Below, piece by piece: positions 5,658 to 42,275 of a DNA stretch of 64,000 nucleotides. A program made the position numbers and the translations under genes. The stretch's first letter is position 1; every line of letters starts with the position of its first letter. The notes under the pieces were generated by a model that saw only the letters and a program-made list of their open reading frames with translations, ran no database searches and was not told where the DNA came from. The DNA is from an uncultured bacterium (GTDB lineage: Bacteria; Krumholzibacteriota; Krumholzibacteriia; JAJRXK01). The stretch covers positions 5,231 through 69,230 of the forward strand of contig CAZQHE010000002.1 of the NCBI GenBank assembly GCA_964593155.1, given 5' to 3'.

Positions 5658-5659
5658 CC

Positions 5660-6295: not shown

Positions 6296-7479
<1,184 letters not shown>

Positions 7480-7527
7480 ACGTCCGGCGCCCTCGTTGGG
7501 CGCCGGCGAGGTGAGGAAGACGACGTC

Positions 7528-8586: not shown

Positions 8587-8628
8587 TCCTGCGTCTCGAA
8601 CCCGGTCCCCCGGTTGCGAGGGAACGAA

Positions 8629-9216: not shown

Positions 9217-9225
9217 GAGAAGACA

Positions 9226-9732
9226 GTGGAAGGGCCCATCTGGTTGTTCTTCGCGGGAATGGGTGTGCTCGGCGCGGCCGGGGTGGCCTTCTCGCGCAAC
9301 GTCCTGCACAGCGCCTTCGGCCTGTTGTTCGCGCTCTTCTCGGTGTGCGCCATGTACGCCATGCTGGGCGCCGACTACCTGGCCGCGACGCAGGTGATCG
9401 TGTACGTGGGCGGCATCCTCGTCCTGGTGGTCTTCGGGGTGATGATGACGCATCGGATCGAGGCCGAGCATCTCCGCGAGGAGATCGTCCAGCCCGTGGC
9501 GGCGGCGATCGCCGCGCTGGTGGTCTTCGGACTGTCGATCACGGTGATCGTGAACGAGGCCTGGCCGTTGCTCGATCCGCTTCCCGAGGTCACGCCGACC
9601 ACCAAGGAGATCGGGCGTGGCTTCCTGACCGACTTCCTGTATCCCTTCGAGTTCGCCAGCGTGCTGCTGCTCATGGCGATGATCGGAGCCGCCATGATCA
9701 CGCGCGAGCGCCGGTCGGAGGAGGACGAGTAG
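9226..9732 (+). CDS. nuoJ: NADH-quinone oxidoreductase subunit J
   Basis: 168 aa, GTG start with an AGGAGA Shine-Dalgarno. It is a hydrophobic ND6-like protein with …VYVGGILVLVVFGVMM…. Confidence 0.9.
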   Translation: MEGPIWLFFAGMGVLGAAGVAFSRNVLHSAFGLLFALFSVCAMYAMLGADYLAATQVIVYVGGILVLVVFGVMMTHRIEAEHLREEIVQPVAAAIAALVVFGLSITVIVNEAWPLLDPLPEVTPTTKEIGRGFLTDFLYPFEFASVLLLMAMIGAAMITRERRSEEDE

Positions 9733-9733
9733 C

Positions 9734-10045
9734 ATGGAGAGCGTCGGACTCACCCACTACCTCGTGCTCTCGGCCTTCTTCCTGGCCGCCGGGGTGTTCA
9801 CCATCCTCAGCCGTCGCAACGCCATCGTCATCCTGATGGGTGTCGAGCTGGTCCTGAACGCGGCCGCGCTGAACTTCGTGGCCTTCGGTCGTTACGTGGC
9901 CGGGGGCCTGACCGGCCAGCTCATGGCCGTGTTCGTGATCGTGATCGCTGCCGCCGAGGCCGCCGTGGCCCTGGCGATCGTGTTGGCCGTGTTCCGCAAC
10001 TTCAACACTGTGCACGTCGACCGGGTCGACCGGCTGCGGAACTGA
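9734..10045 (+). CDS. nuoK: NADH-quinone oxidoreductase subunit K
   Basis: 103 aa. The NuoK/ND4L signature is …LMGVELVLNAAALNFVAF…. Confidence 0.95.
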   Translation: MESVGLTHYLVLSAFFLAAGVFTILSRRNAIVILMGVELVLNAAALNFVAFGRYVAGGLTGQLMAVFVIVIAAAEAAVALAIVLAVFRNFNTVHVDRVDRLRN

Positions 10046-10064
10046 CCGGGGAGAGGGAAGTCAC

Positions 10065-12182
10065 ATGGACCCCCTGATGACGAGCGCCGTCGCGATCCTG
10101 CTTCTGCCGCTCCTCAGCTACGTGCTCCTGTTCTTCTTCGGCGAGAAGCTCCCGCGGCGCGGCGACTGGCTGGGGATCGTCCTGGTCGGGGTGAGCTGGA
10201 TCCTGTCGCTGCGGATCTTCGCGCACTTCTGGAGCCACGACGCGCCGATCGAGCAGAGCTGGAACTGGCTGACCGTGGCCGGGTTCTCGATCGATTTCGG
10301 CATACTGCTCGACGGAATGAGTGCGGTGATGCTGGTGGTGGTGACCACGGTGAGCTTCGTGGTCCACCTCTTCAGCAGTGGCTACATGTGGGGAGACGAG
10401 CGCTATTCGCGCTACTTCGCCTTCCTGGGCTGGTTCACCTTCTCCATGCTGGGTCTGGTGCTCAGCAACTCGCTCTTCTTCCTGTACGTGTTCTGGGAGC
10501 TGGTGGGGATCGCCAGCTACGTGCTGATCGGGTTCTTCTTCTTCAAGCACTCGGCGGCCAACGCGAACAAGAAGGCCTTCCTGGTCAACCGTATCGGCGA
10601 CTTGGGGTTCTTCCTGGGAATCCTGCTGTTCTTCACGGCGATCGGCGAGTTCCAGTACGGCGCTCTGTTCGAGGGCGTGCAGGAGGGTCTGATCGGCGGG
10701 TCCACGCTGACCTGGGCGGGCGTGCTGCTCTTCCTGGGCTGCGTGGGCAAGAGCGCACAGGTGCCCCTGCACGTGTGGCTGCCCGACGCCATGGAGGGCC
10801 CCACGCCCGTGTCGGCCCTGATCCACGCCGCGACCATGGTGGCCGCCGGCGTGTACATGGTGGCCCGTCTCTTCCCGCTGTTCTCGCCCGACGCGCTGAT
10901 GGTCATCGCCTACGTCGGTGGGATCACCGCCATCTTCGCGGCCACGATCGCGATCGTGCAGACCGACATCAAACGTGGCCTGGCCTATTCGACCATCAGC
11001 CAGCTCGGCTACATGGTCATGGCCGTGGGCGTGGGCGGCGTGATGGCCGGAATGTTCCACCTGACCACGCACGCCTTCTTCAAGGCCTGCCTCTTCCTGG
11101 GTTCGGGCGCGGTGATCCACGCCATGCACCACACACAGGACATGCGCTCGATGGGTGGCCTGCGCCGGAAGATGCCGATCACCTTCCTGGCCTTCCTGGT
11201 GTCGACTCTGGCCATCAGCGGCGTGCCGCCCTTCGCCGGGTTCTGGAGCAAGGACGCGATCCTGGCCTCGGCCCTGGCCTTCGGCATGACGAACCACGGG
11301 GTGCACTATCTGCCCTTCGTCTTCGCGCTGCTCGCCGCCTCGATCACCGCCTTCTACATGTTCCGGATCGTGTTCCTGACCTTCCTCGGCGAGCCGCGCG
11401 ACCGGGAGAAGTACGATCACGCCCACGAGGTCAGCTGGCGCATGACCACGCCGCTGGTGATCCTCGGCATCCTGGCCGTGATCGGCGGTGGCTTCCCCGG
11501 CGTCGGCTGGTTCGACCGATTCGTGGAGGACCCCGCGGTGGCGCAGGCCGGACACGACGTCGAGCTGCACCTGGCGGACGACGCGGCCCACGACGTCCCG
11601 GCGGGAGCCGAGGATCCGCACGTGGTCGACACGCACGCCGGGACCACTCCCGCGGCACCCACGCACGCTGCGGAGACCGGAGCGCACGCGGACGGCGACC
11701 ACCACGACATCCATCACGTGGCTCACGGCCGGGCCATGGTCATGAGCCTGATCGCGGCCGGGCTGGGTATCCTTTTGAGCTGGCTGACCTACGGGCAGCG
11801 CATGATCAGCAGCGCGGGCATGCTCCGCGCGCTGCCGGGCGTGCACCGCTGGCTCTACGGCAAGTACTTCGTCGACGAGTTCTACGGCGCGACCGTCGTG
11901 CGGGGAACGCTCGGGCTGTCGGCGGCGGCCGGATGGTTCGACAAGTACGTGATCGACGGAATCGTCAACGGCGTCGGCGCCGTGGGGCGCTGGTCGTCGG
12001 CCCTGAGTGGTCAGACCGATCGCTGGGTGGTCGACGGCCTCGTGAACGCCACGGGCGACGTCCTGCGGTCGATCGGGAACTGGCTCTCGAGCTGGCAGAC
12101 CGGCCGCGTGCAGAACTATTTCCTGGGCCTCGTTACGGGGCTGGTGGTGTTGATCCTGGTGGTGCGCGCGGGCTGGCTGTAG
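10065..12182 (+). CDS. nuoL: NADH-quinone oxidoreductase subunit L (with His/Asp-rich insertion)
   Basis: 705 aa with antiporter-like motifs (…WLPDAMEGPTPVSALIHAATMV…). A ~60-aa His/Asp-rich insert (…HDVELHLADDAAHDVPAGAEDPHVVDTHAG…HADGDHHDIHHVAHG) is not found in canonical NuoL. Confidence 0.95.
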   Translation: MDPLMTSAVAILLLPLLSYVLLFFFGEKLPRRGDWLGIVLVGVSWILSLRIFAHFWSHDAPIEQSWNWLTVAGFSIDFGILLDGMSAVMLVVVTTVSFVVHLFSSGYMWGDERYSRYFAFLGWFTFSMLGLVLSNSLFFLYVFWELVGIASYVLIGFFFFKHSAANANKKAFLVNRIGDLGFFLGILLFFTAIGEFQYGALFEGVQEGLIGGSTLTWAGVLLFLGCVGKSAQVPLHVWLPDAMEGPTPVSALIHAATMVAAGVYMVARLFPLFSPDALMVIAYVGGITAIFAATIAIVQTDIKRGLAYSTISQLGYMVMAVGVGGVMAGMFHLTTHAFFKACLFLGSGAVIHAMHHTQDMRSMGGLRRKMPITFLAFLVSTLAISGVPPFAGFWSKDAILASALAFGMTNHGVHYLPFVFALLAASITAFYMFRIVFLTFLGEPRDREKYDHAHEVSWRMTTPLVILGILAVIGGGFPGVGWFDRFVEDPAVAQAGHDVELHLADDAAHDVPAGAEDPHVVDTHAGTTPAAPTHAAETGAHADGDHHDIHHVAHGRAMVMSLIAAGLGILLSWLTYGQRMISSAGMLRALPGVHRWLYGKYFVDEFYGATVVRGTLGLSAAAGWFDKYVIDGIVNGVGAVGRWSSALSGQTDRWVVDGLVNATGDVLRSIGNWLSSWQTGRVQNYFLGLVTGLVVLILVVRAGWL

Positions 12183-12224
12183 CCGCCGCACGCGCGTCCT
12201 CGTTTCCGGAGAGGTGACGGGCCC

Positions 12225-13742
12225 ATGCTCGAACTCGCTCGGGGAGCCGAGAGCTCTCTGCTGACCTGGATGACCTTCGTGCCCCTGTTGGGCGCCGCGG
12301 TGATCGCCCTGCTGCCGGGTGCGCAGAAGCAGTTGCACCGGTACGTGGCCCTGGCGTTCACGGCCGTGCCCGTGGTGCTGGCCGTGTTCCTGATGATCGG
12401 TTTCGATCGGACGACGACCGACATCCAGTACCACACGCAGGTCTCGTGGATCAGCGCCTTCAACATCGAGTACTTCGTCGGGGTCGACGGGATCTCGGTG
12501 ACCATGGTCCTGCTGACGGCACTGCTCAGTTTCCTGTGCGTGATCGCCAGTTGGGGGATCCAGAAGGCCACGAAGGGCTACTTCTCGCTCTTCCTGCTGC
12601 TCGAGACGGGCATGATGTGCGAGTTCATGGCGCTGGACTTCTTCCTGTTCTACGTGTTCTGGGAAGTGATGCTCCTACCGATGTACTTCCTCATCGGCAT
12701 CTGGGGCGGGCCGCGCAAGGAGTATGCGGCGATCAAATTCTTCCTGTACACCCTGGCCGGCAGCGTGCTGATGCTGCTGGTGATGATCGCGTTCTACTTC
12801 AACATCAGCGATCCGGTCACCGGCGAGAACACCTTCAACATGCTGCACATGATGAACCAGGCGAACCACGGGGACTGGTTGTCCGCGCCCGACATCCGGC
12901 ACATTCTGTTCCTGGGTCTGTTCATCGGCTTCGCGATCAAGGTGCCCATCGTTCCCTTCCACACCTGGCTGCCCGACGCCCACGTCGAGGCACCAACGGC
13001 CGTCAGCGTGATCCTGGCCGGCGTGCTGCTGAAGATGGGCACCTACGGTATCCTGCGGATCTGCTACCCGATCCTTCCCGACGCCGCGGCCTGGTTCTCG
13101 TGGCCACTCGCGATCCTCGGAGCGATCAACATCGTCTACGGAGCGATGTGCGCCCTCGCTCAATCCGACATGAAACGCCTGGTGGCCTACTCGAGTGTGA
13201 GCCACATGGGCTACGTGCTGCTCGGCATGGCGGTCTTCAACGAGGCCGGGATCACCGGCGCCGTGCTGCAGATGTTCAACCACGGCACGATCACGGCCAT
13301 GCTCTTCCTCATGGTCGGTGTGATCTACGACCGGGCCCACCACCGCGAGATCAACGGGTTCGGTGGCCTGGGCACGCAGATGCCGCGCTACACCACGGTG
13401 TTCTCGCTCGCCCTGTTCGCCGCGCTCGGGCTGCCCGGGCTGAGCGGCTTCGTGGGCGAGGCGCTGGTCTTCGTGGGCGCCTTCAGCGTGTACAAGACGG
13501 TGACCATCGTCAGCGCGATCGGGATCGTGCTCGGTGCCGCCTACGTCCTGTGGATGCTGCAGCGCGTGTTCCTGGGTCCGGCCAACGAGAAGTACGCCGA
13601 CCTGCCCGACATCAGCCGGCGTGAGCTGGTGAGTGTGGTGCCGATCGGCATCGTGGTCATTCTCTTCGGCGTGTACCCGCCGCCGCTGATCGACATGATC
13701 AAGACCTCGTTGGTGCATCTGATCGGGATGATCCCGGGCTAG
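12225..13742 (+). CDS. nuoM: NADH-quinone oxidoreductase subunit M
   Basis: 505 aa. The ND4 motif is …WLPDAHVEAPTAVSVILAGVLLKMG…. Confidence 0.95.
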   Translation: MLELARGAESSLLTWMTFVPLLGAAVIALLPGAQKQLHRYVALAFTAVPVVLAVFLMIGFDRTTTDIQYHTQVSWISAFNIEYFVGVDGISVTMVLLTALLSFLCVIASWGIQKATKGYFSLFLLLETGMMCEFMALDFFLFYVFWEVMLLPMYFLIGIWGGPRKEYAAIKFFLYTLAGSVLMLLVMIAFYFNISDPVTGENTFNMLHMMNQANHGDWLSAPDIRHILFLGLFIGFAIKVPIVPFHTWLPDAHVEAPTAVSVILAGVLLKMGTYGILRICYPILPDAAAWFSWPLAILGAINIVYGAMCALAQSDMKRLVAYSSVSHMGYVLLGMAVFNEAGITGAVLQMFNHGTITAMLFLMVGVIYDRAHHREINGFGGLGTQMPRYTTVFSLALFAALGLPGLSGFVGEALVFVGAFSVYKTVTIVSAIGIVLGAAYVLWMLQRVFLGPANEKYADLPDISRRELVSVVPIGIVVILFGVYPPPLIDMIKTSLVHLIGMIPG

Positions 13743-13753
13743 GAGACGAGGGC

Positions 13754-15238
13754 GTGAACTTCACCTGGCTCGACGTGAGCTTCTACCTTCCCGAGCTGAT
13801 CATGCTCGGCACCTTCATCGGCTGCCTGCTGCTGGACCTGGTCCTGCCCAAGCGGACGCCGGCGGTGTTCGGGACACTGGTCGTGGGCACGATCGTCGCC
13901 ACGATCGTGGCGCTGGTGCGCCCTCCGGTCGGCGAGCACTACATCTTCGGCCAGATGATGGTCGTCGACGACTTCTCGCACTTCTTCCGGCTCGTGTTCC
14001 TGGGGATCACGCTGGTGGCGGCGATCTTCAGCTACAGCAGCCGCGAGATCATGGGGCGGGACCGCGAGAACCAGAGCGAGTACTACGCCATGCTCGCGCT
14101 CATGGCCTTCGGCATGATGAGCATGGCCAGCGCCACCGACCTGGTCATGCTGGCCCTGACGATCGAGCTCGTGTCGATCACCAGCTACGTAATGGCCGGG
14201 TTCGCCCGCTTCAGTCTACGGAGCAGCGAGGCGGCGATGAAGTACGTGCTGTGGGGTGCCGTGAGCAGTGGCATGATGTTCTACGGGATCAGTCTGTTCT
14301 ACGGACTGACCGGGGCTACGGGCTACGATGCGATCCGCGAGGGTCTGGCCGCGTCCCAGGCCGGCGACGTGACCGTTCTCGTGGCGATCCTGTTCGTCAT
14401 GGCCGGCATCGGTTACAAGATCAGCGCGGTGCCCTTCCACTTCTGGACACCGGACGTCTACGAGGGAGCACCGACACCGGTGACGGCCCTGTTCGCCGCG
14501 GGCCCGAAGGCAGCCGGCTTCGCGCTGATGATCCGCTTCTTCTACACCACCCTGGTCGGCGGTGACGGCGGCACCGGGTTCCAGGTGCTGCGCGAAGTCC
14601 AGTGGGACATGGTGCTGGCGCTGCTCAGCGCGGTCACCATGACCTGGGGCAACCTGGCCGCCCTGCGCCAGGACAACGTGAAGCGTATGCTGGCCTACAG
14701 CTCGATCGCCCACGTGGGTTACCTGCTCATGGGCTTCGTGTTGCTCACCCAGAGTGGTCTGCAGGCGATCCTGTTCTACCTGCTGATCTACGCGATCATG
14801 ACGCTGGGGGCCTTCCTCGTGGTGATCGCGCTGAACAACCGGTTGGGCAGCGAGGACATCGAGGACTACGCGGGACTCGGATTCCGCGAGCCGCTGCTGG
14901 CCGCCTCGATGTTCGTGTTCCTGATCAGCCTCACCGGCTTGCCACCGACGGCGGGTTTCATCGGGAAGTTCTACCTGTTCGCCGCCGTCGGCGAGATGGG
15001 CATGTGGTGGTTGGCGATCCTCGGCGTGCTCAACAGCGTGGTGAGCCTCTACTACTACATGCGGATCGCCAAGGCCATGTACTTCACGCCGGCCACGGAG
15101 CAGGGGCCGCTGGGCCTGGCCGTTCCGCACGTCGTGCTGGTGGTGCTGCTGGTCATCCCCACCGTGATCTTCGGGGTGTACTGGGCGCCGCTGAAGGGCC
15201 TGGCCGATCGTAGCGTGCTCGGTTTCTGGGGCGGGTGA
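13754..15238 (+). CDS. nuoN: NADH-quinone oxidoreductase subunit N
   Basis: 494 aa. The ND2 motif is …FHFWTPDVYEGAPTPVTALFAAGPKAAGF…. Confidence 0.95.
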   Translation: MNFTWLDVSFYLPELIMLGTFIGCLLLDLVLPKRTPAVFGTLVVGTIVATIVALVRPPVGEHYIFGQMMVVDDFSHFFRLVFLGITLVAAIFSYSSREIMGRDRENQSEYYAMLALMAFGMMSMASATDLVMLALTIELVSITSYVMAGFARFSLRSSEAAMKYVLWGAVSSGMMFYGISLFYGLTGATGYDAIREGLAASQAGDVTVLVAILFVMAGIGYKISAVPFHFWTPDVYEGAPTPVTALFAAGPKAAGFALMIRFFYTTLVGGDGGTGFQVLREVQWDMVLALLSAVTMTWGNLAALRQDNVKRMLAYSSIAHVGYLLMGFVLLTQSGLQAILFYLLIYAIMTLGAFLVVIALNNRLGSEDIEDYAGLGFREPLLAASMFVFLISLTGLPPTAGFIGKFYLFAAVGEMGMWWLAILGVLNSVVSLYYYMRIAKAMYFTPATEQGPLGLAVPHVVLVVLLVIPTVIFGVYWAPLKGLADRSVLGFWGG

Positions 15239-15471
15239 ACCGCCCCGGAACCTCGCGGTGCTTCGGCAACGTGGTGAGCCGGCCCGCGCCCTGATGCGCG
15301 TGCATCGGTCTGAAGCGCGATCCCGCCACTTCTTCCACCGATTGTGTGACCGTCGGCGGCCCTGCGCTGGCCCGCCTCGTCGGCCGTGACCTAGAGTCGG
15401 CGCGCCGCCGTGTCCGCGACGACACCGGTGTCGCCGCTCCCGGTCATGCCATCCGCCGTGGAGGTTCCCCC

Positions 15472-18400
15472 ATGCGCCGCGCCCTCTCCCTGGTTCTCGT
15501 CGGTCTGTTCCTCGGTGTTCCCGTCCACGCCGCCGAACCCGTGGTCCTCGATCTCGGCACCGATCCCGCGTTGCGGGTGACGTCGGTCTCGCTCGACGAG
15601 GTCACCGTGGAGGTCGACGTCGGTCGCCTGCGCTTCTTCGACGTGGAGACACCCGAGGGCACGTTCACGCAGGTGACGATCCCGGGGTTCCATCGCAGTC
15701 GGGAGATCGGGCGCCCCGCCGTTCCGGTCATGAACCGTCTCGTGGCGATCCCGGACGGTGCCGAGGCCTCCGTCGAGGTCGTCGAGGCGAAGACCCGGCG
15801 CGTGCGACTCGCCGACGTCGGGGTCGAGCACCGCCTCATGCCCGCCCAGCCGAGCCTGTCGAAGAGCGCCGATCCCGGGCCGCAGCCCTTCCACTTCGAT
15901 CGGGCCGCCTACGCGACACCGGTCACGCTCGACGACCTCGAGTTGGCGGGGATGGTCGAGCAGGGCCGATTGCGGGCGCTCGACTTCGGTCGCCTCGAGG
16001 TTCGTCCGGTGGCCTACGATCCGGTCCGCGAGGAGCTGGAGGTCGCCGAGAGCCTGCGTCTGCGTGTGCGCTTCGAGGGAGGGCGACCGGGCACGACGGA
16101 AGACCTGCTGGCGCGCACCCGCAGCCCCTTCTTCGACGGTGTCTACGGCCGCTTCGCGGGCAGCAAGGGGCTGCACGAGTCCTACCCGGACGTCGTGCGC
16201 GACGAAGTGACCTACGTCGTCGTCACGCCGCCCGAGTTCGAAGCCGGGCTCGAGGACTTCGTGGCCTGGAAGACCGAGCGCGGCTTCCACGTGGAGGTCG
16301 GCGTGATCGGCACGCCGGAGGTGGGCAGCACCACCAGCAGCATCCAGAGCTATCTGCACGGTCTCTTCCACGGGGCCACGCCCCAGCAGCCGGCTCCGAG
16401 CTTCGTGCTGTTCGTCGGCGACGTGGCGCAGTGTCCCACGTGGACCGTCAGCGGCAACGCCACCGACCGTCCCTACTGCACGGTGGACGGCGACGGGATC
16501 CCGGACATGTACTACGGACGGTTCTCGGCCACGAACGCCGCGGAACTGCAGGCCATCGTGGACAAGACGATGACCTACGACACCCTGTCGATGGCCGATC
16601 CGAGCTATCTGGGCGACGTCGTGCTGATCGCCGGTGCCGACGCCAGCTGGGCCCCCACGCACGGCAACGGCACCATCAACTACGGAACCGACAACTACTT
16701 CGATGCCGCCCACGGAATCGACGCCGACGTCCATCTCTACCCGCAGTCGCAGTACGATGCCTCGCTCATCGTGAGCGAGGTCGGCCAGGGCCGCGGGTTC
16801 GTCAACTACACCGCGCACGGAAGCCGCACGAGCTGGGCCGATCCGAGCTTCACGCAGTCCGACATCGCGGGACTGCAGAACGTCGACGAGTACGGGCTGG
16901 TGATCGGCAACTGCTGCCTGACGTCGACCTACGACTACGCCGAGTGCTTCGCCGAGTCGTGGTTGCGCGCGCCCGACCGCGGAGCGATCGGCTACATCGG
17001 AGGCTCGAACTCGACCTACTGGGACGAGGACGTCTACTGGAGCGTGGGGTCCACCGCGTCGATCACGGCCGACATGCCCTTCGAGAACACGGGCCTGGGC
17101 GCGTATGACGGTCTCTTCCACGACCACGGCGAGGACGAGGACCAGTGGTACGTGACGCAGCACGCGGTGGCCTTCTGCGGCAATCTTGCCGTGCAGGAAT
17201 CGGGTTCGAGCCGCACCGACTACTACTGGGACATCTACAACCTCATGGGAGATCCGTCCCTGCCGGTCCATGTGGGCGTTCCAGAGGCGAATCCGGTGGT
17301 CCACGCCGACAACCTGGTCGCGAACCAGACGTCGATCACCGTGTCCGCCGCGGTCGGTAGCTATGTCGGCGTGAGTCAGGACGGGGTTCTCCTGGGGGCG
17401 GGGACGGTCCACGACGGTGCGACCGACGTGACCATCGACTACCTCCAGCCGTTGCAGGCGGGGGTAGCGGCCCGCATCGTGGTGACCGGACAGAACCTCG
17501 CCCCCTACGTGACCGACCTCCCGGTCGCGGCTCCGAGCGAGGTCACGATCAGTCCCGTGGAGCTGCCCAGCGGGGTCCCGACCGAGGTCGCAGTCCGTGT
17601 GCTGCGCAACGACGGGGTGACCCCCATCCCCGGCGTCGAGGTGCGGGTGAGCGACCCCATGGACTACGAGGTCACCGCCTTCACCGACTCGGCGGGCCGG
17701 GCCACGGTGGATGTCGACTACCCCTACGGAACCGCGCTCGGAGTGCGTGGAACGCACCCCACGGAGGGCTTCCTCTTCGACGAGCAGCTCACGGTGACCG
17801 CCGCGCCGCTCGTCGAGCCCGACCTCACGGTGAGTACCGAGTTCGGACTCGTCGATCTGTTCGGCATGAACCTGCAGAGCACGATCGTCGCCAGCAGCCA
17901 GACACCGGGCACGACCCTGGTGGCCTACGTGCCCGGTCTCGGCCGCATGGAATCGACGTCCGACACCCTGGTCTGCACGCCCACCCAGGGTGGCGAGGTG
18001 CGCGCCTTCCTCCTGGTGTCCGGACATCAGATCCACGCCGAGACCTTCCCCGTGCTCACGCAGGGCAGCGTGCGCGGCACCGTGCAGCTCGAGGGCGAGA
18101 CCGACTTCTCCGGTGTGACGGTCGCGGCATCGCCCGGAGGAGCCAGCACGGTCACCGCTGCCGACGGCAGCTATCTGCTGACCGGCCTCGAGCCCGGCGA
18201 CCACACCCTGACCGCCGAGCGCGAGGGGTTCTCGGTCGGGACGACGCCTCTCACCCTGGGCGAGGGCGAGCACCTCGACGGCGTCGACTTCGCCCTGTCG
18301 ATCGTGTACGAGATCGAGGTCTGCGAGGACGCTGCGCTGGCCATTCCCGACGACTTCACCCGTGGGGTGACCTCGACCATGGAGGTCGCGTCGGCCGGCG

Positions 18401-18993
18401 AGATCACGTGGGCCCGCGTGCATCTCGACCTCACCCACACCTACCAGGGTGACCTGATCGTTCAACTGATCTCGCCGTCGGGAACCACGGTCGTCCTGCA
18501 CGATCGCAGCGGTGGGTCGGTCGACGACATCGTCGGCTGGTATCCCGATGCCCTGATGCCGTCCGAGAGCCTCGACGCGTTCGCCGGCGAGGACATGGCG
18601 GGGAGCTGGCGTCTGCACGTGAGCGACAACGCCGGTTACGACACCGGGACGTTGAACTCGTGGTGCCTGAACCTGGGCTACGCCGGCGGTACGGTCACCG
18701 CGGTGAAGGCGCCCCGGACCCTCGGCCTCGAGCGCAACGTTCCGAATCCCTTCAACCCCAGCACCACGATCGCGTTCTCGATTCCGCGGGAGGGCGAGGT
18801 CCGACTCACGGTCTACGACCTGCGTGGCCGCCGGGTGGCCACTCTGGTCGACACCGTGCTCCCGGCGGGCCCCCATCGCCGGACCTGGGACGGGTGCGAC
18901 GATCGCGGGCGTCCGCTGGCCAGTGGAACGTACTTCTATCGTCTGAACACGGGTGATCGCGCGTTGAGCCGGAAGATGCTGTTGTTGAAATAG
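15472..18993 (+). CDS. secreted peptidase C25 (gingipain-like) multidomain protein with proprotein-convertase P-domain and T9SS type-A C-terminal sorting domain
   Basis: ORF 15346..18993. The Met at 15472 has a GGAGG Shine-Dalgarno 8 nt upstream and a signal peptide MRRALSLVLVGLFLGVPVHAAEP. The catalytic His and Cys blocks align to RgpB (FVNYTAHGSRTSWADP…VIGNCCLTSTYDYAECFAESWLRA). A CarboxypepD_reg-like segment follows, then a P-domain (…TYQGDLIVQLISPSGTTVVLHDR…AGSWRLHVSDNAGYDTGTLNSWCLNL). The C-terminus NVPNPFNPSTTIAFSIP…VYDLRGRRV…WDGCDDRGRPLASGTYFYRL…KMLLLK is the T9SS sorting-domain signature. Confidence 0.85.
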   Translation: MRRALSLVLVGLFLGVPVHAAEPVVLDLGTDPALRVTSVSLDEVTVEVDVGRLRFFDVETPEGTFTQVTIPGFHRSREIGRPAVPVMNRLVAIPDGAEASVEVVEAKTRRVRLADVGVEHRLMPAQPSLSKSADPGPQPFHFDRAAYATPVTLDDLELAGMVEQGRLRALDFGRLEVRPVAYDPVREELEVAESLRLRVRFEGGRPGTTEDLLARTRSPFFDGVYGRFAGSKGLHESYPDVVRDEVTYVVVTPPEFEAGLEDFVAWKTERGFHVEVGVIGTPEVGSTTSSIQSYLHGLFHGATPQQPAPSFVLFVGDVAQCPTWTVSGNATDRPYCTVDGDGIPDMYYGRFSATNAAELQAIVDKTMTYDTLSMADPSYLGDVVLIAGADASWAPTHGNGTINYGTDNYFDAAHGIDADVHLYPQSQYDASLIVSEVGQGRGFVNYTAHGSRTSWADPSFTQSDIAGLQNVDEYGLVIGNCCLTSTYDYAECFAESWLRAPDRGAIGYIGGSNSTYWDEDVYWSVGSTASITADMPFENTGLGAYDGLFHDHGEDEDQWYVTQHAVAFCGNLAVQESGSSRTDYYWDIYNLMGDPSLPVHVGVPEANPVVHADNLVANQTSITVSAAVGSYVGVSQDGVLLGAGTVHDGATDVTIDYLQPLQAGVAARIVVTGQNLAPYVTDLPVAAPSEVTISPVELPSGVPTEVAVRVLRNDGVTPIPGVEVRVSDPMDYEVTAFTDSAGRATVDVDYPYGTALGVRGTHPTEGFLFDEQLTVTAAPLVEPDLTVSTEFGLVDLFGMNLQSTIVASSQTPGTTLVAYVPGLGRMESTSDTLVCTPTQGGEVRAFLLVSGHQIHAETFPVLTQGSVRGTVQLEGETDFSGVTVAASPGGASTVTAADGSYLLTGLEPGDHTLTAEREGFSVGTTPLTLGEGEHLDGVDFALSIVYEIEVCEDAALAIPDDFTRGVTSTMEVASAGEITWARVHLDLTHTYQGDLIVQLISPSGTTVVLHDRSGGSVDDIVGWYPDALMPSESLDAFAGEDMAGSWRLHVSDNAGYDTGTLNSWCLNLGYAGGTVTAVKAPRTLGLERNVPNPFNPSTTIAFSIPREGEVRLTVYDLRGRRVATLVDTVLPAGPHRRTWDGCDDRGRPLASGTYFYRLNTGDRALSRKMLLLK

Positions 18994-23762: not shown

Positions 23763-23975
23763 CCCACGAAAACCGTTGTCGTCGGTCGGGATCATCTCTA
23801 TTGTTGGGGGCGTCCAGGTGAATCGCGACGGCGCTCGCACCCGAGTCGCATCACCGAGAGCACAGCCACGCGATGCAGCGCAGAGGAATTCGCCGGGAGC
23901 CCAGGCTGCAAGAGGGCTGCCGACATCGCGAAGCCTCTGACGCGCGAGCAGGGAAGACGGAAGCCCTGCGTCCTG

Positions 23976-24011
23976 CCGGCGGTCGGTCACGACCGCCGGC
24001 TTCTTTCTTCC
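23976..24011 (+). terminator. GC-rich hairpin (10-bp stem CCGGCGGTCG/CGACCGCCGG, loop GTCA) followed by CTTCTTTCTTCC tract
   Basis: A perfect inverted repeat at 23976..23999 is followed by a pyrimidine/T-rich run at 24000..24011. It lies in the 333-nt intergenic gap between the DUF5916 gene and sbcD. Confidence 0.4.
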
Positions 24012-24095
24012 CCCGGCGATCCTCCTGCGTCTTGGCGATCGCGCGGGCTGGTGATAGACATCGCGGGTCGACGCACTCTCCTCCGAGGTCGGTTC

Positions 24096-25289
24096 GTGCG
24101 AGCCCTCCGCTTCCTGCAGATCAGCGACGTGCACTTCGGCGCCCCGATGCGGGGTGGACGACTTCGTCTCGACGACGAGACGGCACGGACGCGCGCCCAG
24201 GAACGTCGGGCCGCGTTCGCGCGGGCCTTCGACGTGGTGCGCGATCGCGACCTCGACGGCGTGGTGATCCCCGGTGATCTGTTCGACGACGAATCGATCG
24301 ACACCGACACGCTGCGCTTCGTGGCGCACACCCTGCAGAGCATCGCACCGCGGCCGGTGTTCGTGGCCCCTGGCAACCACGATCCCTACGGCGGAGCGTC
24401 GCCGTATCGTACTGTCGGACAGGAAGATGCACGAGGGGTGCGTTGGCCCGACAACGTCCGTGTCTTCGCGCACGCGGACTTCCGCACGCTTGCCTGGCCG
24501 GGTCGCGACGACGTCTTCGTCACCGGCAGCGGTGTGGCGACGAACACCCCGGACACCCAGCGTCGCCTGGCACGGCGGGTCCCGCGCGAGGGTGAGGGAC
24601 GACACCTCCTGCTGTTCCACGGCAGCCGCGACGACGGTCACTTCCTGCAACCGCACAAGTCCACGCACCCCTTCTCGCGCGACGAACTCCTGGCGCAGGA
24701 CTTCGACTGGGTCGCGCTCGGTCACTACCACCAGCGCGCCGTGATCCTCGACGACGACGGCCGGGCGCGGGGCGCGTACGGAGGCTGCCTGATCGCGGGC
24801 GGTCTCGACGAGCGCGCCGAACGCGGAGCACTGGTGGTGGAACTCGAGGGCACATCGACACACGTCGAAGCGCTCCCGCTCGACCCACGCCAGGTGCACT
24901 CCGTCGATCTCGACGTGACCGGGGCCGACTTCGCCGAGGACCTGGCCGCGCGTCTCGACGCGGCACTGGAGCGTGCGGGCGTGGGGGCGCAGGATCTCGT
25001 GTTGGTGCGCGCGCACGGACGGCGCGCGCGGGGTGTCGATCTGCGCGCGCTCGACGGTCGCGCCGCCGAGGTGTTCCACCTGCGGATCGATGCGTCCGGC
25101 GTGCGGGCGGCGGTGGATCCCGTCGAGTTCCCTTCGCTCGAGGACGCGACCACCACCGAGGAGCGCTTCGTCGCCACCCTGCGCGACGATCCTCCCGCCG
25201 ACGTGCCCGAGGAACGCGTGCACCGTGCACTGCTGTACGGGCTCGACGCACTCGAACACGGGCGCCTCGACGCGCGCTACGAGGAGTGA
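24096..25289 (+). CDS. sbcD: DNA repair exonuclease SbcD/Mre11-like (calcineurin-type phosphoesterase)
   Basis: ORF 24051..25289. The GTG at 24096 (GAGG Shine-Dalgarno 8 nt upstream) gives MRALRFLQISDVHFG…, matching the SbcD N-terminus. The phosphoesterase motifs GDLFD, GNHD and GHYHQ are present. Confidence 0.85.
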   Translation: MRALRFLQISDVHFGAPMRGGRLRLDDETARTRAQERRAAFARAFDVVRDRDLDGVVIPGDLFDDESIDTDTLRFVAHTLQSIAPRPVFVAPGNHDPYGGASPYRTVGQEDARGVRWPDNVRVFAHADFRTLAWPGRDDVFVTGSGVATNTPDTQRRLARRVPREGEGRHLLLFHGSRDDGHFLQPHKSTHPFSRDELLAQDFDWVALGHYHQRAVILDDDGRARGAYGGCLIAGGLDERAERGALVVELEGTSTHVEALPLDPRQVHSVDLDVTGADFAEDLAARLDAALERAGVGAQDLVLVRAHGRRARGVDLRALDGRAAEVFHLRIDASGVRAAVDPVEFPSLEDATTTEERFVATLRDDPPADVPEERVHRALLYGLDALEHGRLDARYEE

Positions 25290-25292
25290 GCC

Positions 25293-28154
25293 GTGCGCCT
25301 GCTGCAGCTCGACATCCGCGGATTCGGCCGCCTGCGGGGGCGTGTGCACCTCGACGCCGGTGACGACGCGGTCGGACTGCTGCTCGAGCGCAACGAAGCC
25401 GGCAAGTCCACCCTGGCCGCGGCCCTGCTCGCCGCGCTCTACGGACTCGACGGCGACCGGCGGCGCTTCCGCGGCACGATCACCGAGCTCGACCGTTACC
25501 GTCCGTGGTCGGAGGGGCCCTACGGTCTCGCGCTCACGCTGCGGCACGAGGGCCACGAGTACACCGTCGACCGTGACTTCGCCCACGACACCGTGCGCGT
25601 GCTGCGCGGTGCGGAGGACGTGACCGACCGGTTCCGGCGGGGACACACCGTCGCCGTGGGTGAGACCTTCTCGGGACTTCGGCGCGAGCAGTTCACCGCG
25701 AGCGTGTTCGTCGGGCAGGGCGACGTGGTGTGGAACGACCCCGAGCGCCTGACCGAAGCCCTGCAGCGGGTGGCCGATTCGCAGTCGGGACGGTCGACCG
25801 TGGCCGCCGCCGTGCAGGCCCTCGACCACGCTCTCGATCGCTTCGACGGTCTCACCCTGGCCCAGCCGGGCAAGGTCGACACCGAGATCCAGCGCTGCGA
25901 GGACACGATCGCCGCCGCATCGGCCGAACTGAACGCACTCGAAGCCGGACGCGCGGCCCTCGACCGACCACTCGACGAACTCGAGAGCCTGCGCCGGGCC
26001 TCTGCCCAGGACGAGCAGCACCGCCGCCGCCTCCGCCTGCGCCGCCTGCGCACCGAACGCGATGCCGTGCGCAGGGTGCTCGACGACGACGCGGATCTCG
26101 GCGACGAGATCTCCGCGCTGCGCGCCGAACTCGACGACGCGGGCGAGCTCGACGCGCGGATCGCCGAGCACCGGACTCGTGTCCAGCAGCTGCGCCACGA
26201 GCACGAACTCCGCGGCCGCGACCTCGAGCGCGAGCGCGACGAACTGCGCACCGTCGATGCCGAGATCGAGGCGCAGGAGGCGGCCCTGGGGAACACCGGT
26301 CTCTCGCGGGTTCCCACCGCCGACGAGTTCGATCGTCTGCACGACGCCGCGCGCCGGCTCGCCGACGCCAGCGACGAACACGAGACCTACCTGCGTCGTC
26401 TCGACGACGATCGCCGTGCACTTCGCGAACTCGGCCACGAACTCGGCGAGGTCCTGTCGCTCGCGCGTGACTTCGAGGGTCTGAGCGACGCCGACCGCGT
26501 GCTGCTGGTGGGCCGTGCCGCACGCCGGAGCGAGCGCGACGACGCGCGCCGCGAGCACCGGAGCACCGTGGACCGCGCCGGCCGCACGCTGGAGCGGGTG
26601 GCGACGGCGCGGACGCGTCGCCGCCGCGTGGGATGGGCGGTTCTCGCGGTCGCCTTCGCGCTGACGGTGGCCGCCTTCGTCGCGGGTCCGCGCCTGCCGA
26701 TCCCACCCGGCGTGACCCTCGCGATTCCCGCGACGCTGGCCGTGGCCGGGGCGGTTGTGGCGCTCACCGCACCGCGGCACCGCGCGCACGAGGCGTCGGC
26801 GGCACGCGAGACCCTCGAGGACGCGGCCGCGGCGTATCGTCGGCTCGAGGCCGACGAGCGCGACGAGGAAGAGCGGTGGGTCGAACTCGCGGCACGTCTC
26901 GCGACCGATCCCGTCGACCTCGAGGACCGCTACGCGGTGTGGTGCCGCGTGGAGCACCGCGCCCGCAGTGCGTCGGTACACCGCGCCCGCGTCGACGAGT
27001 GCCGTGCGGCACGGATCCGTGCGCTCGAAGCACTGGGCACGTTCGAGGAGCTCTTCGGCGAGTCGGTCCTGGAGGTTCGCGTGGAGTCGTGGCTCGACCG
27101 CGCTCACGCCGCCCGCACCGAGGACGACCGCCTGGAGGCAGCACGAGGGCGCGCCGCGGCCCGTCGTGCGCGTCTCGAGGAACTCGAGGCCGGCCACCGC
27201 GAGCACCAGGCCACACTGCGCGAGGAACTCCGGCCCCTGGGGATCGATGTCGACGAGCTGCCCCTCGAACGCGCGCTGGCCGCCTTCGACCGCCTGGTCA
27301 CGGGGTGGCGTGCCCGTGAGGACGTACGCGAGCACCGCATCCCCCAGCTCGAACGACGCCGTCTCGACAGCGAGGAACGCGAGGCCCACACCCGCCGCCT
27401 CGAGACGATCGAGTCGGAGATCGACGGCCTGGCCGCCGAATTCGTGAGCGACGCCGACGTCGTGGCGCCGCTCGGTGCGACCGACTACGAGGACGCCCTG
27501 CGCGAACTCGACGAGCGCTCCCGGCGTCGACGCGCCGAAGACGAAGCGCTGCGCGACGAGACCCGCAGTTTCCTGCTCGACTACGAGTCACGGGCCCCCG
27601 ATCTGCGCGAGCGGATCGACACGCACGAGCGCGCGTTGCAGCGGGCGCGCGAGTTCCGCGCCGCCGTCGTTCTGGCGCGCGACACCCTGGCGCGGCTCGG
27701 ACAGCAGACCCACCGCGTGTGGGCCGCGTCGATCCAGCGCACCGCCGCCGACTTCCTGCGGCGCATGGGGAGCGCGGTCGACGAGATCCGTTTCGACGAG
27801 AACCTCGGCCTGCGGATCCGCCAGCACGATCGGGTGTTCACTGGCCACGAAGCGACGCGTATCCTGTCGGCGGGCGCGCTCGACGCGGTGTTCCTGGCCG
27901 CGCGGTTCGCCGTGGCCCGCTTCCTGGGCGGCGACTGCGATCCGCTGCCCCTGGTGCTCGACGATCCGCTCGCGAACGCCGACGACCGCCGCCTGCTCGA
28001 CACCCTGCGGTTGCTGATCGAAGCGGTCGCGCCGCAGCAGCAGGTCCTGCTCATGGCCTGTCAGCGGTCGCGCTACGACTGGGCGGTGTCCCGCCTCGAA
28101 CGGCCGGCGTCGTTGCGTACGCTCGAACTGTCCACCGACGGCGCTCCGCGCTGA
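25293..28154 (+). CDS. sbcC: SbcC/Rad50-like AAA ATPase with long coiled-coil
   Basis: 953 aa with the N-terminal Walker A (ERNEAGKSTLAAALLAALYG). The middle ~600 aa are heptad-like and Arg/Glu/Leu/Ala-rich. The C-terminal D-loop/Walker B is LPLVLDDPLANADDRRL. The start is 4 nt after the sbcD stop. Confidence 0.85.
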   Translation: MRLLQLDIRGFGRLRGRVHLDAGDDAVGLLLERNEAGKSTLAAALLAALYGLDGDRRRFRGTITELDRYRPWSEGPYGLALTLRHEGHEYTVDRDFAHDTVRVLRGAEDVTDRFRRGHTVAVGETFSGLRREQFTASVFVGQGDVVWNDPERLTEALQRVADSQSGRSTVAAAVQALDHALDRFDGLTLAQPGKVDTEIQRCEDTIAAASAELNALEAGRAALDRPLDELESLRRASAQDEQHRRRLRLRRLRTERDAVRRVLDDDADLGDEISALRAELDDAGELDARIAEHRTRVQQLRHEHELRGRDLERERDELRTVDAEIEAQEAALGNTGLSRVPTADEFDRLHDAARRLADASDEHETYLRRLDDDRRALRELGHELGEVLSLARDFEGLSDADRVLLVGRAARRSERDDARREHRSTVDRAGRTLERVATARTRRRRVGWAVLAVAFALTVAAFVAGPRLPIPPGVTLAIPATLAVAGAVVALTAPRHRAHEASAARETLEDAAAAYRRLEADERDEEERWVELAARLATDPVDLEDRYAVWCRVEHRARSASVHRARVDECRAARIRALEALGTFEELFGESVLEVRVESWLDRAHAARTEDDRLEAARGRAAARRARLEELEAGHREHQATLREELRPLGIDVDELPLERALAAFDRLVTGWRAREDVREHRIPQLERRRLDSEEREAHTRRLETIESEIDGLAAEFVSDADVVAPLGATDYEDALRELDERSRRRRAEDEALRDETRSFLLDYESRAPDLRERIDTHERALQRAREFRAAVVLARDTLARLGQQTHRVWAASIQRTAADFLRRMGSAVDEIRFDENLGLRIRQHDRVFTGHEATRILSAGALDAVFLAARFAVARFLGGDCDPLPLVLDDPLANADDRRLLDTLRLLIEAVAPQQQVLLMACQRSRYDWAVSRLERPASLRTLELSTDGAPR

Positions 28155-38688: not shown

Positions 38689-39657
38689 TCAAGACTCGCT
38701 GGCCTCGGTCTCGGCCGTCAGCACGGCCACGCGGACCTCCGGCGGCGACTTCCGGCGGTCGATGCTGATCACGCGCACCGGGATCTCCTGGCCCACCTCG
38801 TAGTAGGCACCGGCGTCGGGGACGAAGCCACGGTTCATGTCCTTGACGTGCAGCAACGTCTTCGCGTGCTGGTGCAGGTCGAGGAACACGCCGTACTTCT
38901 TCACCGTCTGCACGCGACAATCGACGACCTCGCCCACCTCGGGCAGATCGATCGACTCCGGATCGACGGGTTCGGGAGCGAGCGACGGATCCTGGTCGAA
39001 CTCGTCGTCGTACTCGTCGAACTCGTCGTCGTACTCGTCGTCGTAGTCGTCCTCGTACTCGTCCTCGTACTCGTCGTCGGTGCCGCCCCCCGCGTTCGCA
39101 CCGGCGTGCGAGCCGTTCTCGCGGCGCTCCCGCGGCTCGGGCGGTCGCTTGTCGCTCTCGATCTCGTCGCGCAGGTCGTTGAGGTCGATGAAGTTCACAC
39201 CGACCTGCTGGCGCAGTTCGACCGCCACGTTCTGCGGAGTGGCGGCCACGAGCACGCGCTTGCCCCGGTGCTGCAGGGTCTCGAGCAGGGGCACGAAGTC
39301 ACTGTCGCCCGTCACGAAGATCGCGGTGTCGTAGTGGTCGACCTCGCTCAGGGCGTCGATCGCCAGTTCGATGTCCAGGCTACCCTTCATGTGGTAGCTG
39401 CCGGACGTGCGGTCGAAGACCTGCTTCAGCACCTTCTTGCGGATGGAGAAGCCGATCAGGGTGAGATGGTGCAGGAAGCGCTCCTGCTCGGGTTCGGGAG
39501 TACGGTTGTACGCCTGGTACCAACGCGCCGCCACGAGCTCATGGCCTTCACGCATGGTCGCGAGGAATCGCGGCCATTCGATCCACCAGCCGAGAGCTTC
39601 CTTCTGGGCGAAATAGACGTTGGCGCCATCGACGAAGATGGCCACACGTTCGGCCAT
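38689..39657 (-). CDS. NYN-domain (LabA-like) ribonuclease-like protein with acidic linker and C-terminal S1 RNA-binding domain
   Basis: Internal Met at 39657 of ORF 38689..39918. The NYN N-terminus is MAERVAIFVDGANVYFAQKEALGW… …AIFVTGDSDFVPLLETLQHRGKRVLV. The acidic low-complexity linker is DDEYEDEYEDDYDDEYDDEFDEYDDEFD. The S1-like C-terminus is GEVVDCRVQTVKKYGVFLDLHQHAKTLLHVKDMNRGFV…GQEIPVRVISID. Confidence 0.75.
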   Translation of the reverse strand: MAERVAIFVDGANVYFAQKEALGWWIEWPRFLATMREGHELVAARWYQAYNRTPEPEQERFLHHLTLIGFSIRKKVLKQVFDRTSGSYHMKGSLDIELAIDALSEVDHYDTAIFVTGDSDFVPLLETLQHRGKRVLVAATPQNVAVELRQQVGVNFIDLNDLRDEIESDKRPPEPRERRENGSHAGANAGGGTDDEYEDEYEDDYDDEYDDEFDEYDDEFDQDPSLAPEPVDPESIDLPEVGEVVDCRVQTVKKYGVFLDLHQHAKTLLHVKDMNRGFVPDAGAYYEVGQEIPVRVISIDRRKSPPEVRVAVLTAETEASES

Positions 39658-39930
39658 GGGAGCACCTCGTTCCGACTGTGTTCGTGGACGAGGGGTCGGG
39701 AGCCGGCCACGAACGTTCTCGTAGAGCGAAGAGGAAGGAGGTTCGACACTCGATTCCAGTTCGCGTGCTGTTGCCGTGGGCCCGCGTCGCGCGAGCGACG
39801 ACCGAGGGCCGGATGGCGGATCTCTCCGCGCTGTGTCGATCAGTGCCGGGGTCCCGGCCCGGGGCGCCCGACGGTCGGTGAGTCCATTGCGACGGCGTCG
39901 ATTTCCGAGCCCATGCAAACGGTCGACAAG

Positions 39931-40986
39931 CTAGTCGACTCGAACGAGCGTGCCAACCCGCTCCTCGACGGTTCCGATCCGGGTGGCCTGGTCGTATCCG
40001 GCCTCGTGGAGTGCCCGGAGGGCTTCGTCGGCCCGCTCGGACGGGAGGCAGGCCACCAGTGGCCCGGATGTCTGCGGGTCGTGCAACAACTCCGCCCGTT
40101 CGGCCGGCAGATCGGCGGGGATGTCGACCCTTTCGACCGCGTGGCGCATGTTCGCCTGGGCACCTCCGCAGGTGAATCCCTCGGCCAGCATCCGGACCGC
40201 ACCGGGAAGCTCGGGAATCGCACGGTGGTCGAGGCGCAGGGTCACGTCGCTCGCCTGGGCCATCTCCGCGAGATGACCGCTCAGACCGAAGCCCGTGATG
40301 TCGGTCGCGGCACGGGCCCCGTGCGCGCGGGCGATCTCGGCGGCCGGGCCGTTCGAGGTCGTCATGCCCCGGACGAGCTCCGCGAACCACGGGTCCTCCT
40401 CGCCGAAGCGGCCGCTCTTGAGCGCGGTGGACAGTGCCGAGGTGCCGATCGCCTTGTTGATCAGCAGCACGTCGCCCGGCCGGGCCGCGTGGTTGGTGAG
40501 CAGCGCATCGGGATGGACCTCACCGACCACCGCCAGGCCGAACTTCAGTTCGGAGTCCTTGACCGTGTGTCCACCCAGCACCGGACACGACGACGCGAGC
40601 GCGGCCTCGCTGGCCCCGGCCAGCACGTCGCGCAGGGCCTCGGCGGGAATCTTCGGCGAGAAGCACGCCACGTTCAGGGCCATGAGCGGACGCGCGCCCA
40701 TGGCGTAGATGTCGCTGATCGAGTTCGTCGCGGCGATGCGGCCGAAGGTGAAGGGGTCGTCGACGATCGGCGTGATCACGTCGACCGTGAACACGATCGC
40801 GCGGTCCTCGCTCACACGGTAGACGGCGGCGTCGTCGGCGGGCTCGAGCCCGACGAGGACGCGGTCGTCGGTCGGGATCTTCGGCAATCCCTGCAGGATG
40901 ATCTCCAGGTCCCCCGGAGCGAGCTTGGCGGCTCAACCGGCGGCGCTGGCGTACTGCGTCAGACGGATCCGTTGCTCGTCACTCAT
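39931..40986 (-). CDS. selD: selenide, water dikinase (selenophosphate synthetase) SelD, selenocysteine-containing (in-frame UGA at complement 40933..40935)
   Basis: The ORF track gives only 39931..40887. Reading upstream on the - strand from ATG (complement 40984..40986) gives MSDEQRIRLTQYASAAG-TGA-AAKLAPGDLEIILQGLPKIPTDD… The TGA aligns with the catalytic Cys17 of E. coli SelD (RLTQYSHGAGCGCKISP) and the essential Lys follows. A good Shine-Dalgarno (AAGGGGGUG) precedes the ATG. The rest matches SelD throughout (…FGRIAATNSISDIYAMGARP…VLGGHTV…DITGFGLSGHL…). Confidence 0.85.
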
Positions 40987-41009
40987 GGTTCACCCCCTTT
41001 CGTGGTGCC

Positions 41010-42275
41010 TCAGAACGTGAAGGTGTCCTCGAACACGAAGACGTCCTCGCCGTCGTCGGTCCGGGCCCACTCGAAACGGAAGTTCCGCGTGTTGAAGTTG
41101 AAGTGCAAGCCCAGACCCGAGCCGAAGCGCACTTCCTGCGCGTCGAGGTCGGCGTCGTGCGCCCACGAGGTGCCCCGATCGTGGAATGCGTGCACGCCCA
41201 CGCCGATCGTACGGCCCTCGCGCAGGGGCAACAGCAGCAGCGGGCGTCGCAGCTCGACACTCGCGCGCCAGGCGTCGTCGCCCACGATGCTGCCGAAGTC
41301 GAGTCCGCGCAGCGTCATGGGGCCGCCCTGGTAGTTCTTCCGGTAGAAGGGCAGCGTGGTGTTCGCGGTCCGGAACGCACCGTTCACCGCGAGTACGGTC
41401 CCGACCACCGGCAGCGTGCGGAAGCCCGACAGCGAGATCGACGCGATCCTGTAGTCGTCGATGCCGTCGTCGAGTCCTCCGAACAGCAGCTCGGCGCGGC
41501 CGTGCAGGCCGGTACCGGGGTAGTAGCGCACGTCGCGCGAGTCGTGGATCAACTCCAGGGCCACTTCGGGATCGTGGACGATGCCGGCGCCCTCGAGTTC
41601 GAGTTCGCTCCAACCGGCCTGCGCGCGAAGGGTCACCCAGGGATCGAAGGTGCGCCACACGCCGGCGCGCGCTCCCCAGTCGGTGAACTCGTCGCTCGGA
41701 TCGATCGCTGCGAGATCGTACTCCCACTCGTGGCGTTGCCAGTGCGCGGCGGCGAACACGCCGAGTCGTGCGGGGCCGAGGATCCAGGGGTTCTGCCACA
41801 CGACACGGGCGCCGCGGCGCGACCACGCGCTCAGCTCGAGGTCGAGGCTCTCGGCGCGGCCGGTCGGGTTCACCCAGCCCACGCGGAGTGTCCCGAGGAA
41901 CGATTCCCCGTAGCGTCGGCTGTACTCGAGTCCCGGCGCCCAGCGGAAACGGTCGTCCTCTTCCACGTGGACGATCAGTTCGACTCGTGTCGGGTCCGGA
42001 CGAACGGTCTCGATCTCGACATAGGCGATGAACGCGAGCGCCTCGAGGCGTTCCCATCCCTCGCCGACGAGTTCCGGATCGTACTCGTCGCCGGCCTCGA
42101 TCCCGAGGGTGCGTCGGAGCACGTAGTCGCGCGTGACTTCGTTGCCCCGGAATTCGACGCGTTCGACCCTGCGCTCGCCGCGGTTCTGCAGGAAGGGGTT
42201 CTGCGCCGGAGCCACGGTGGCCGGTAGCAGCAGGACGACGGCGAGGAACGTACTGAGCGTGTGCCGCAGGGACAT
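41010..42275 (-). CDS. Omp85-family (BamA/TamA-like) outer-membrane protein, one POTRA + beta-barrel
   Basis: 421 aa. The signal peptide is MSLRHTLSTFLAVVLLLPATVAPAQ. A POTRA-like segment (VERVEFRGNEVTRDYVLRRTLGIEAGDEYDP) is followed by a barrel with the terminal aromatic …FEDTFTF. The stop is 23 nt upstream of the selD start. Confidence 0.75.
   Translation of the reverse strand: MSLRHTLSTFLAVVLLLPATVAPAQNPFLQNRGERRVERVEFRGNEVTRDYVLRRTLGIEAGDEYDPELVGEGWERLEALAFIAYVEIETVRPDPTRVELIVHVEEDDRFRWAPGLEYSRRYGESFLGTLRVGWVNPTGRAESLDLELSAWSRRGARVVWQNPWILGPARLGVFAAAHWQRHEWEYDLAAIDPSDEFTDWGARAGVWRTFDPWVTLRAQAGWSELELEGAGIVHDPEVALELIHDSRDVRYYPGTGLHGRAELLFGGLDDGIDDYRIASISLSGFRTLPVVGTVLAVNGAFRTANTTLPFYRKNYQGGPMTLRGLDFGSIVGDDAWRASVELRRPLLLLPLREGRTIGVGVHAFHDRGTSWAHDADLDAQEVRFGSGLGLHFNFNTRNFRFEWARTDDGEDVFVFEDTFTF

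Follow-up and report, generated by a model that had tools for sequence, protein, structure and literature searches.

A predicted selenocysteine-type selD with an in-frame UGA at its catalytic position and a conserved downstream hairpin, truncated in public gene calls

On the minus strand of the window, by which we mean the whole 64-kb stretch of DNA that was analysed, a full-length selD coding sequence extends over positions 39931..40986 and comprises 351 residues, with selenocysteine (Sec) as residue 18 and the TAG stop included in the interval. Its frame can be read and translated directly from the DNA: an ATG (40986..40984) is followed by 17 codons, MSDEQRIRLTQYASAAG, and then by an in-frame TGA (40933..40935, minus strand), the codon equivalent to Cys17 of Escherichia coli SelD; after the TGA comes AAKLAPGDLEIIL, read further as AAKLAPGDLEIILQGLPKIPTDD, and the frame continues for 333 more codons to the TAG stop at 39933..39931. 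A Shine-Dalgarno-like element, AAAGGGGGTG (40991..41000, minus strand), which would be the putative ribosome-binding site, sits 5 nt 5′ of the selD ATG and 9 nt past the stop (TGA, 41012..41010) of the upstream gene, which encodes an Omp85/POTRA protein (41010..42275, minus strand). Downstream of selD lies a gene with NYN and S1 domains (38689..39657, minus strand, with public gene calls starting at about 39657), and the 273-nt gap that separates it from the selD stop contains no tRNA or Rfam match. A promoter and terminator scan of 39500..41200 returned nothing. The NYN + S1 RNA-binding protein, taken over 38689-39930 on the minus strand, has a strongly acidic linker that is rich in Asp, Glu and Tyr (DDEYEDEYEDDYDDEYDDEFDEYDDEFD). 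When we re-read the sequence, the frame, the position of the UGA and the coordinates of both the ORF track and the hairpin in a preliminary description of this DNA all proved to be correct.

Several other genes of the window are of note in their own right. On the plus strand, a complex I operon of 11 genes (4409-15238) has, according to Pfam, the order nuoA, B, C, D, H, I, J, K, L, M, N, and no nuoE, F or G was seen in the window. At 15346-18993 (plus strand) is a gene for a peptidase C25 (gingipain-like) protein of approximately 1215 aa, with a propeptide, a P-domain, a CarboxypepD_reg domain and a C-terminal FlgD_ig-like domain. At 23763-28154 (plus strand), a calcineurin-like phosphoesterase gene is followed by a gene that starts right at its TGA stop and whose product, of 954 aa, is AAA_23/AAA_27-like at the N-terminus; this phosphoesterase and AAA pair has an SbcD/SbcC-like look.

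The membership of the full-length product in the SelD family is evident from its profile, domain and structure matches, all of which were obtained from protein scans run with Cys substituted at residue 18. The protein scored 333 bits on the NCBIfam profile for selD, TIGR00476 (cutoff 125), and 309.2 bits on a second NCBIfam profile, NF002098 (cutoff 299), with both matches starting at residue 4-8, and it contains the Pfam domains AIRS and AIRS_C. Among solved structures it matched best the SelD of Aquifex aeolicus (2yye) and that of E. coli (3u0o, E = 9e-64, residues 4-339 of the query on 3-333 of the chain). Aligned pairwise to the selD product of E. coli K-12 (b1764, NC_000913.3), the protein was 40% identical over the full length, and its N-terminus aligned without gaps, A-A-G-[TGA]-A-A-K pairing with G-A-G-C-G-C-K and residues G17, C18 and K21 falling on E. 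coli G16, C17 and K20, respectively. Also kept in that alignment were Asp52, Asp69, Asn88, Asp92 and Asp229, whose E. coli counterparts we take to be D51, D68, N87, D91 and D227. In E. coli SelD the catalytic Cys and Lys of the Gly-rich loop are essential. The preliminary description had placed the UGA at the position of Cys17 with the essential Lys after it, and the alignment bears this out, position 18 lying on E. coli Cys17 with a Lys three residues on, in a 351-aa translation that is a full-length SelD scoring above the curated cutoffs. It had also considered that the 17 codons upstream of the UGA might be non-homologous to SelD N-termini, and here the HMM and PDB alignments, which begin at residue 4, speak for homology.

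Mechanical ORF listing gives a shorter gene, a truncated ORF of 318 aa (39931..40887, minus strand) that has a TTG start and begins 16 codons past the TGA. Is it possible that this ORF, translated from TTG 40887 or from some other downstream start, encodes the functional product and that the 33 codons upstream are untranslated? Such a protein is certainly on public record, as the exact 318-aa product is found on three contigs, from the NCBI MAG GCA_054920255.1 and from Logan assemblies of the SRA runs SRR13334647 and SRR33304589, in all of which the same species recurs, and it still scores 303 bits on TIGR00476. However, that score is about 30 bits below that of the full-length protein, with profile positions 1-32 missing, and on NF002098 the 318-aa product reaches 276 bits, which is under the cutoff of 299. 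A protein begun at the TTG would have no Gly-rich loop with the catalytic Sec/Cys and Lys, whereas the 33 codons upstream of the TTG are homologous to SelD N-termini, to which homology the difference of about 30 bits corresponds, and the Shine-Dalgarno-like site lies before ATG 40986. We therefore consider a downstream start to be exceedingly unlikely, and the 39931..40887 ORF is an annotation artefact and no separate gene. The prediction in the preliminary description that selD would be mis-annotated as truncated has thus come about in the literal sense, since it is precisely the 318-aa piece that the public protein collection contains.

A different explanation for the interrupted frame makes selD a pseudogene, its TGA being due to a nonsense mutation or to faulty assembly. 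Both ORF and gene calling do see an interrupted gene, and Sec machinery was not seen in the window. For comparison with relatives, we scanned one genome per species for SelD and obtained 80 loci with 41-49% identity to the window protein, belonging to Acidobacteriota, Spirochaetota, Thermodesulfobacteriota and Syntrophia, Dehalococcoidia, Bacillota, Verrucomicrobiota and others. At the aligned column the codon is TGA in 77 of these 80 closest loci and a Cys codon in the other three, so that the U/C column named in the preliminary description is conserved. Parsing resolved 75 of the loci (TGA in 72, TGT in two and TGC in one), and the remaining five, which were missed by the parsing pattern, read GG-UGA-GCC-UG[C/U]-AA. 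Judged from the sequence, the presence of a UGA and its positional match to Cys17 are beyond chance. Additionally, the same DNA as in the window is present in three independent assemblies over a stretch that begins at the Omp85 stop and takes in the ATG, the TGA and the hairpin, and this excludes a sequencing or assembly error. A pseudogene would also have to be reconciled with a stop that falls exactly at the Cys/Sec column, with conservation at the protein level on both flanks of the TGA and with a conserved SECIS after it. We rejected the pseudogene or assembly error as extremely improbable and, in effect, refuted.

Loci L081-L084 are of the same species as the window, and over 242 bases aligned near the start of selD they are identical save for one synonymous site. 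The longest contig on record with the truncated SelD measures 75,443 nt. No SelD above 49% identity was found in any species representative of the genome collection, and the lineage is consequently poorly represented there.

Downstream of the UGA is a hairpin, CUCCGGG-GGA-CCUGGAG (40903..40919, minus strand), that has 7 bp including one G.U, with its arms at 40919..40913 and 40909..40903 and a GGA apical loop at 40912..40910. The hairpin starts 13 nt past the UGA and its loop 20 nt past the UGA, and its minimum free energy (MFE), when folded alone, is -10.5 kcal/mol. The published consensus of the bacterial SECIS element (bSECIS) comprises an apical loop of 3-9 nt with a G within its first two positions, usually as G[G/U], a stem of 4-16 bp, a distance from UGA to loop of 16-37 nt, and an MFE of <= -7.5 kcal/mol (PMC13188914). 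The window hairpin agrees with all four of these published constraints: its loop is GGA, its stem has 7 bp, the distance is 20 nt and the MFE is -10.5 kcal/mol. The preliminary description had the 13-nt offset, the 7 bp and the one G.U right, but its view that the hairpin does not look canonical has to be abandoned, given the agreement on four of four published criteria and an offset that is shared by relatives.

At 69% GC the fold alone is unremarkable (z = -1.74 for a 25-nt stretch, with 14 of 200 shuffles folding at least as stably), and for longer stretches around the hairpin the folding z is about 0. As single-sequence folding was non-significant, we relied on comparative evidence. At gathering thresholds no Rfam family matched anywhere in the window, and within 40700..41100 none of the SECIS families matched at E <= 10; weak Rfam matches to sbcD RNA, MIR918 and ACAT were judged to be due to chance. 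No Rfam family includes the hairpin, a circumstance that is irrelevant to whether the hairpin works as a bSECIS. In the minimum-energy fold a 4-bp hairpin, GAGC-CGCCAA-GCUC (window 40921-40934, minus strand), takes in the last two bases of the UGA. Similar UGAGC...GCUCA pairings are found in several relatives (e.g., L018, L029, L037, L039 and L054), and this pairing may be a by-product of the GCN-NNN-AAG-CUC codons.

In an ungapped alignment of 73 Sec-type loci the helix is at the same columns throughout, and 87.7% of the helix cells are paired, versus 21-50% after displacement of the 3′ arm by 1-3 columns. Covariation of the hairpin is directly observed: four of the seven helix pairs show changes on both sides, and the observed covariation score was reached by 0 of 500 shuffles, although the relatives are not phylogenetically independent and the shuffle and Wilcoxon statistics therefore overstate the significance. 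One compensatory change involves the window itself, in which the basal pair is C-G and not the G-C of most relatives; the C-G goes with Ala/Glu in the window protein, versus Ser or Gly/Asp in relatives. The hairpin overlaps the conserved codons [S/G/A]-P-x-x-L-[D/E], and its conservation partly reflects the protein. As a coding control, synonymous codons were resampled from each gene's own codon usage, and the window helix has 7/7 pairs versus 5.05 expected under this resampling (P = 0.004), while the locus set has a mean of 6.16 pairs versus 3.88 expected, with a set-wide P that is inflated by relatedness. Further support can be found in a covariance model, R1, that was built from the 72 other loci, with the window left out, and run unfiltered over all 64 kb. 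It matches only 40938..40885 (minus strand) with 55.7 bits (E = 3e-11), the next best score in the window being 9.8 bits. The hairpin is the conserved selD-type element, and its offset is shared by relatives that belong to several phyla. As far as can be told from sequences, it is the comparison with relatives, and not folding alone, that gives the hairpin its significance.

The register of the helix is that of the window in 54 of the 73 loci, and in 48 of these the loop is GGN. Eight loci, for the most part from Spirochaetota (L007, L031, L038, L048, L059, L061, L077 and L080), use a register 3 nt nearer to the UGA, and this Spirochaetota-type register reads GGUCC-GGN-GGACC, extended to 6-7 bp, approximately 17-33 nt past the selD UGA. 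The helix thus occurs in either of two registers, and in each the loop begins with GG.

Does it follow that the UGA is decoded as Sec? It might be decoded as Cys or Trp through near-cognate read-through, or it might have been reassigned, and the failure to find selA, selB and tRNA-Sec in the window could be cited in favor of either. Against reassignment is the use of the same codon elsewhere in the window, where TGA is the commonest stop and ends 29 of the 48 ORFs that are supported by third-position GC content, Pfam-confirmed genes (nuo, Omp85, rhomboid and acyl-CoA dehydrogenase) being among those it terminates; because it ends most genes of the window, UGA is not reassigned. In simple read-through, a conserved SelB-type bSECIS hairpin would have no role. 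Moreover, in relatives of the Cys type the codon is TGT or TGC and the hairpin tends to be lost, and it is these loci that score lowest with R1 (L002, 41 bits; L064, 31 bits; L033, 25 bits). Decoding of the UGA as anything other than Sec is, in our estimation, very unlikely.

The Cys-type loci differ in how much of the helix they keep. By eye, L033 keeps 3/7 and L064 4/7 helix pairs, most of the pairing having been lost, and L002 (L002:10049-10102, TGT) keeps a perfect 7/7 helix, which suggests a recent Sec-to-Cys conversion. SECIS remnants have been reported after Sec-to-Cys conversion (PMC1794560), and L002 fits that description.

On this evidence we conclude, with a probability of roughly 0.93, that the gene is a selenocysteine-type selD and that its product is a predicted selenophosphate synthetase (selenide, water dikinase); the three rival explanations (pseudogene or assembly error, downstream start, and decoding other than as Sec) are improbable even when taken together. 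The core of the preliminary description, namely a Sec-type SelD with UGA at the Cys position, a Lys three residues on and truncation by ORF and gene callers, is supported by each of the tests applied.

A Sec-type selD would require selA, selB and tRNA-Sec. ARAGORN found no tRNA, and hence no tRNA-Sec, in the 64-kb window, and Pfam scans of approximately 50 ORFs of the window found no SelA, SelB, SelU/YbbB or YqeB/C. The same-species contig L084, which runs some 1.9 kb beyond the window on its right-hand side, has no selA, selB or tRNA-Sec in that extension, where a sulfatase and a response regulator are found. We infer strongly that selA, selB and tRNA-Sec are encoded elsewhere in the genome, because a conserved Sec-type selD is not expressible without them. 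A tRNA-Sec within 10 kb of selD was seen in two relatives, and no such linkage exists in the window: in an Acidobacteriota MAG it is about 2 kb downstream (L010:12970-13066), and in Lawsonibacter faecis it is about 5 kb downstream of a Sec-type selD (L024:16327-16421). A scan of the window for in-frame TGA codons with coding-like GC3 on both sides gave only three ordinary gene junctions, those of nuoH/nuoI, of the SbcD/SbcC-like pair and of the rhomboid gene with its upstream neighbour; its thresholds missed the UGA of selD too, as this has only 17 codons upstream.

How would the full-length enzyme be made? The steps proposed here rest on established knowledge of bacterial Sec decoding. Translation would start at ATG 40986 and the UGA at codon 18 would be recoded as selenocysteine. 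By analogy with known systems, the elongation factor SelB, with GTP and Sec-tRNA(Sec), would bind the apical part of the hairpin (40919..40903), which is intragenic, beginning 13 nt past the UGA, and which presents its GG-initiated apical loop approximately 20 nt from the codon, so that Sec could be delivered as the ribosome reaches the UGA. The predicted product is a 351-aa enzyme with an N-terminal Gly-rich mobile loop, A-A-G-U-A-A-K, that would carry the catalytic Sec18 and Lys21, and it would presumably make selenophosphate from selenide and ATP. As selenophosphate is needed for Sec-tRNA(Sec), synthesis of the enzyme would depend on its own product. The binding of SelB and the insertion of Sec, like the presence of selA, selB and selC, are probable.

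Two wider possibilities can be raised. First, SECIS elements of the selD type may form a discrete RNA family that spans several phyla and is covered by no Rfam model. Such a family would be characterized by an apical loop that begins with GG, by a fixed offset of about 20 nt and by its construction from the codons [S/G/A]-P-x-x-L-[D/E], and Spirochaetota would have its second register, 3 nt nearer to the UGA. If so, a formal model of the family could help to recover selD genes that are called in truncated form in metagenomes. Second, SelD might be the only selenoprotein in this high-GC lineage, with the Sec-decoding apparatus kept just to make it, in which case that SelD would feed its own synthesis and other selenium pathways. 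These readings strike us as rather unlikely.

The main value of our observations is in annotation, in that the catalytic N-terminus with Sec18 and Lys21 has been cut off in the public gene calls for this species and the truncated product falls under the cutoff of one NCBI equivalog (NF002098). In addition, an organism with a Sec-type selD probably uses selenocysteine, and its other UGA-interrupted genes are worth screening for selenoproteins. No biological principle is changed by the finding.

The Sec type of SelD, known since the 1990s, is a textbook case. Among the closest parallels for the window gene is the Sec-containing bacterial SelD, for instance that of A. aeolicus, which belongs to the same family and has the motif G-U-A-A-K-(V/L)-x-P-G-D-L. 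The Aquifex SelD 2yye reads SSGCAAKVGPGDL and the window AAG-U-AAKLAPGDL, the Aquifex structures (2yye/2zod) having been crystallised as the Sec-to-Cys form. SelD selenoproteins have been listed for Deltaproteobacteria, Clostridia and others (PMC1794560), and SelD is among the two most widespread bacterial selenoproteins (PMC1794560, PMC13188914). The Aquifex-type and the listed SelD selenoproteins resemble the window gene in that UGA is the codon at the catalytic position and a hairpin within the gene directly follows it. What sets the window SelD apart from the known Sec-type proteins is its identity of 41-49% with any species representative, a basal pair that is C-G and not G-C, and a host with 69% GC. 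E. coli SelD (3u0o, b1764), with its 40% identity over the full length, has the same domains, the same Asp/Asn residues and Lys20 as the equivalent of Lys21, but its gene has TGC (Cys) in place of TGA and no SECIS, R1 giving no match at the homologous site. With the bSECIS consensus, of which E. coli fdhF is the archetype, the window shares an intragenic stem-loop just 3′ of the UGA, with a GG loop and a 7-bp stem. The fdhF hairpin contains a bulged U, and the window hairpin was set beside the consensus by its loop, stem, offset and MFE. In these respects the gene is an ordinary Sec-type SelD, a well-known and widespread arrangement, in a high-GC diderm bacterium.
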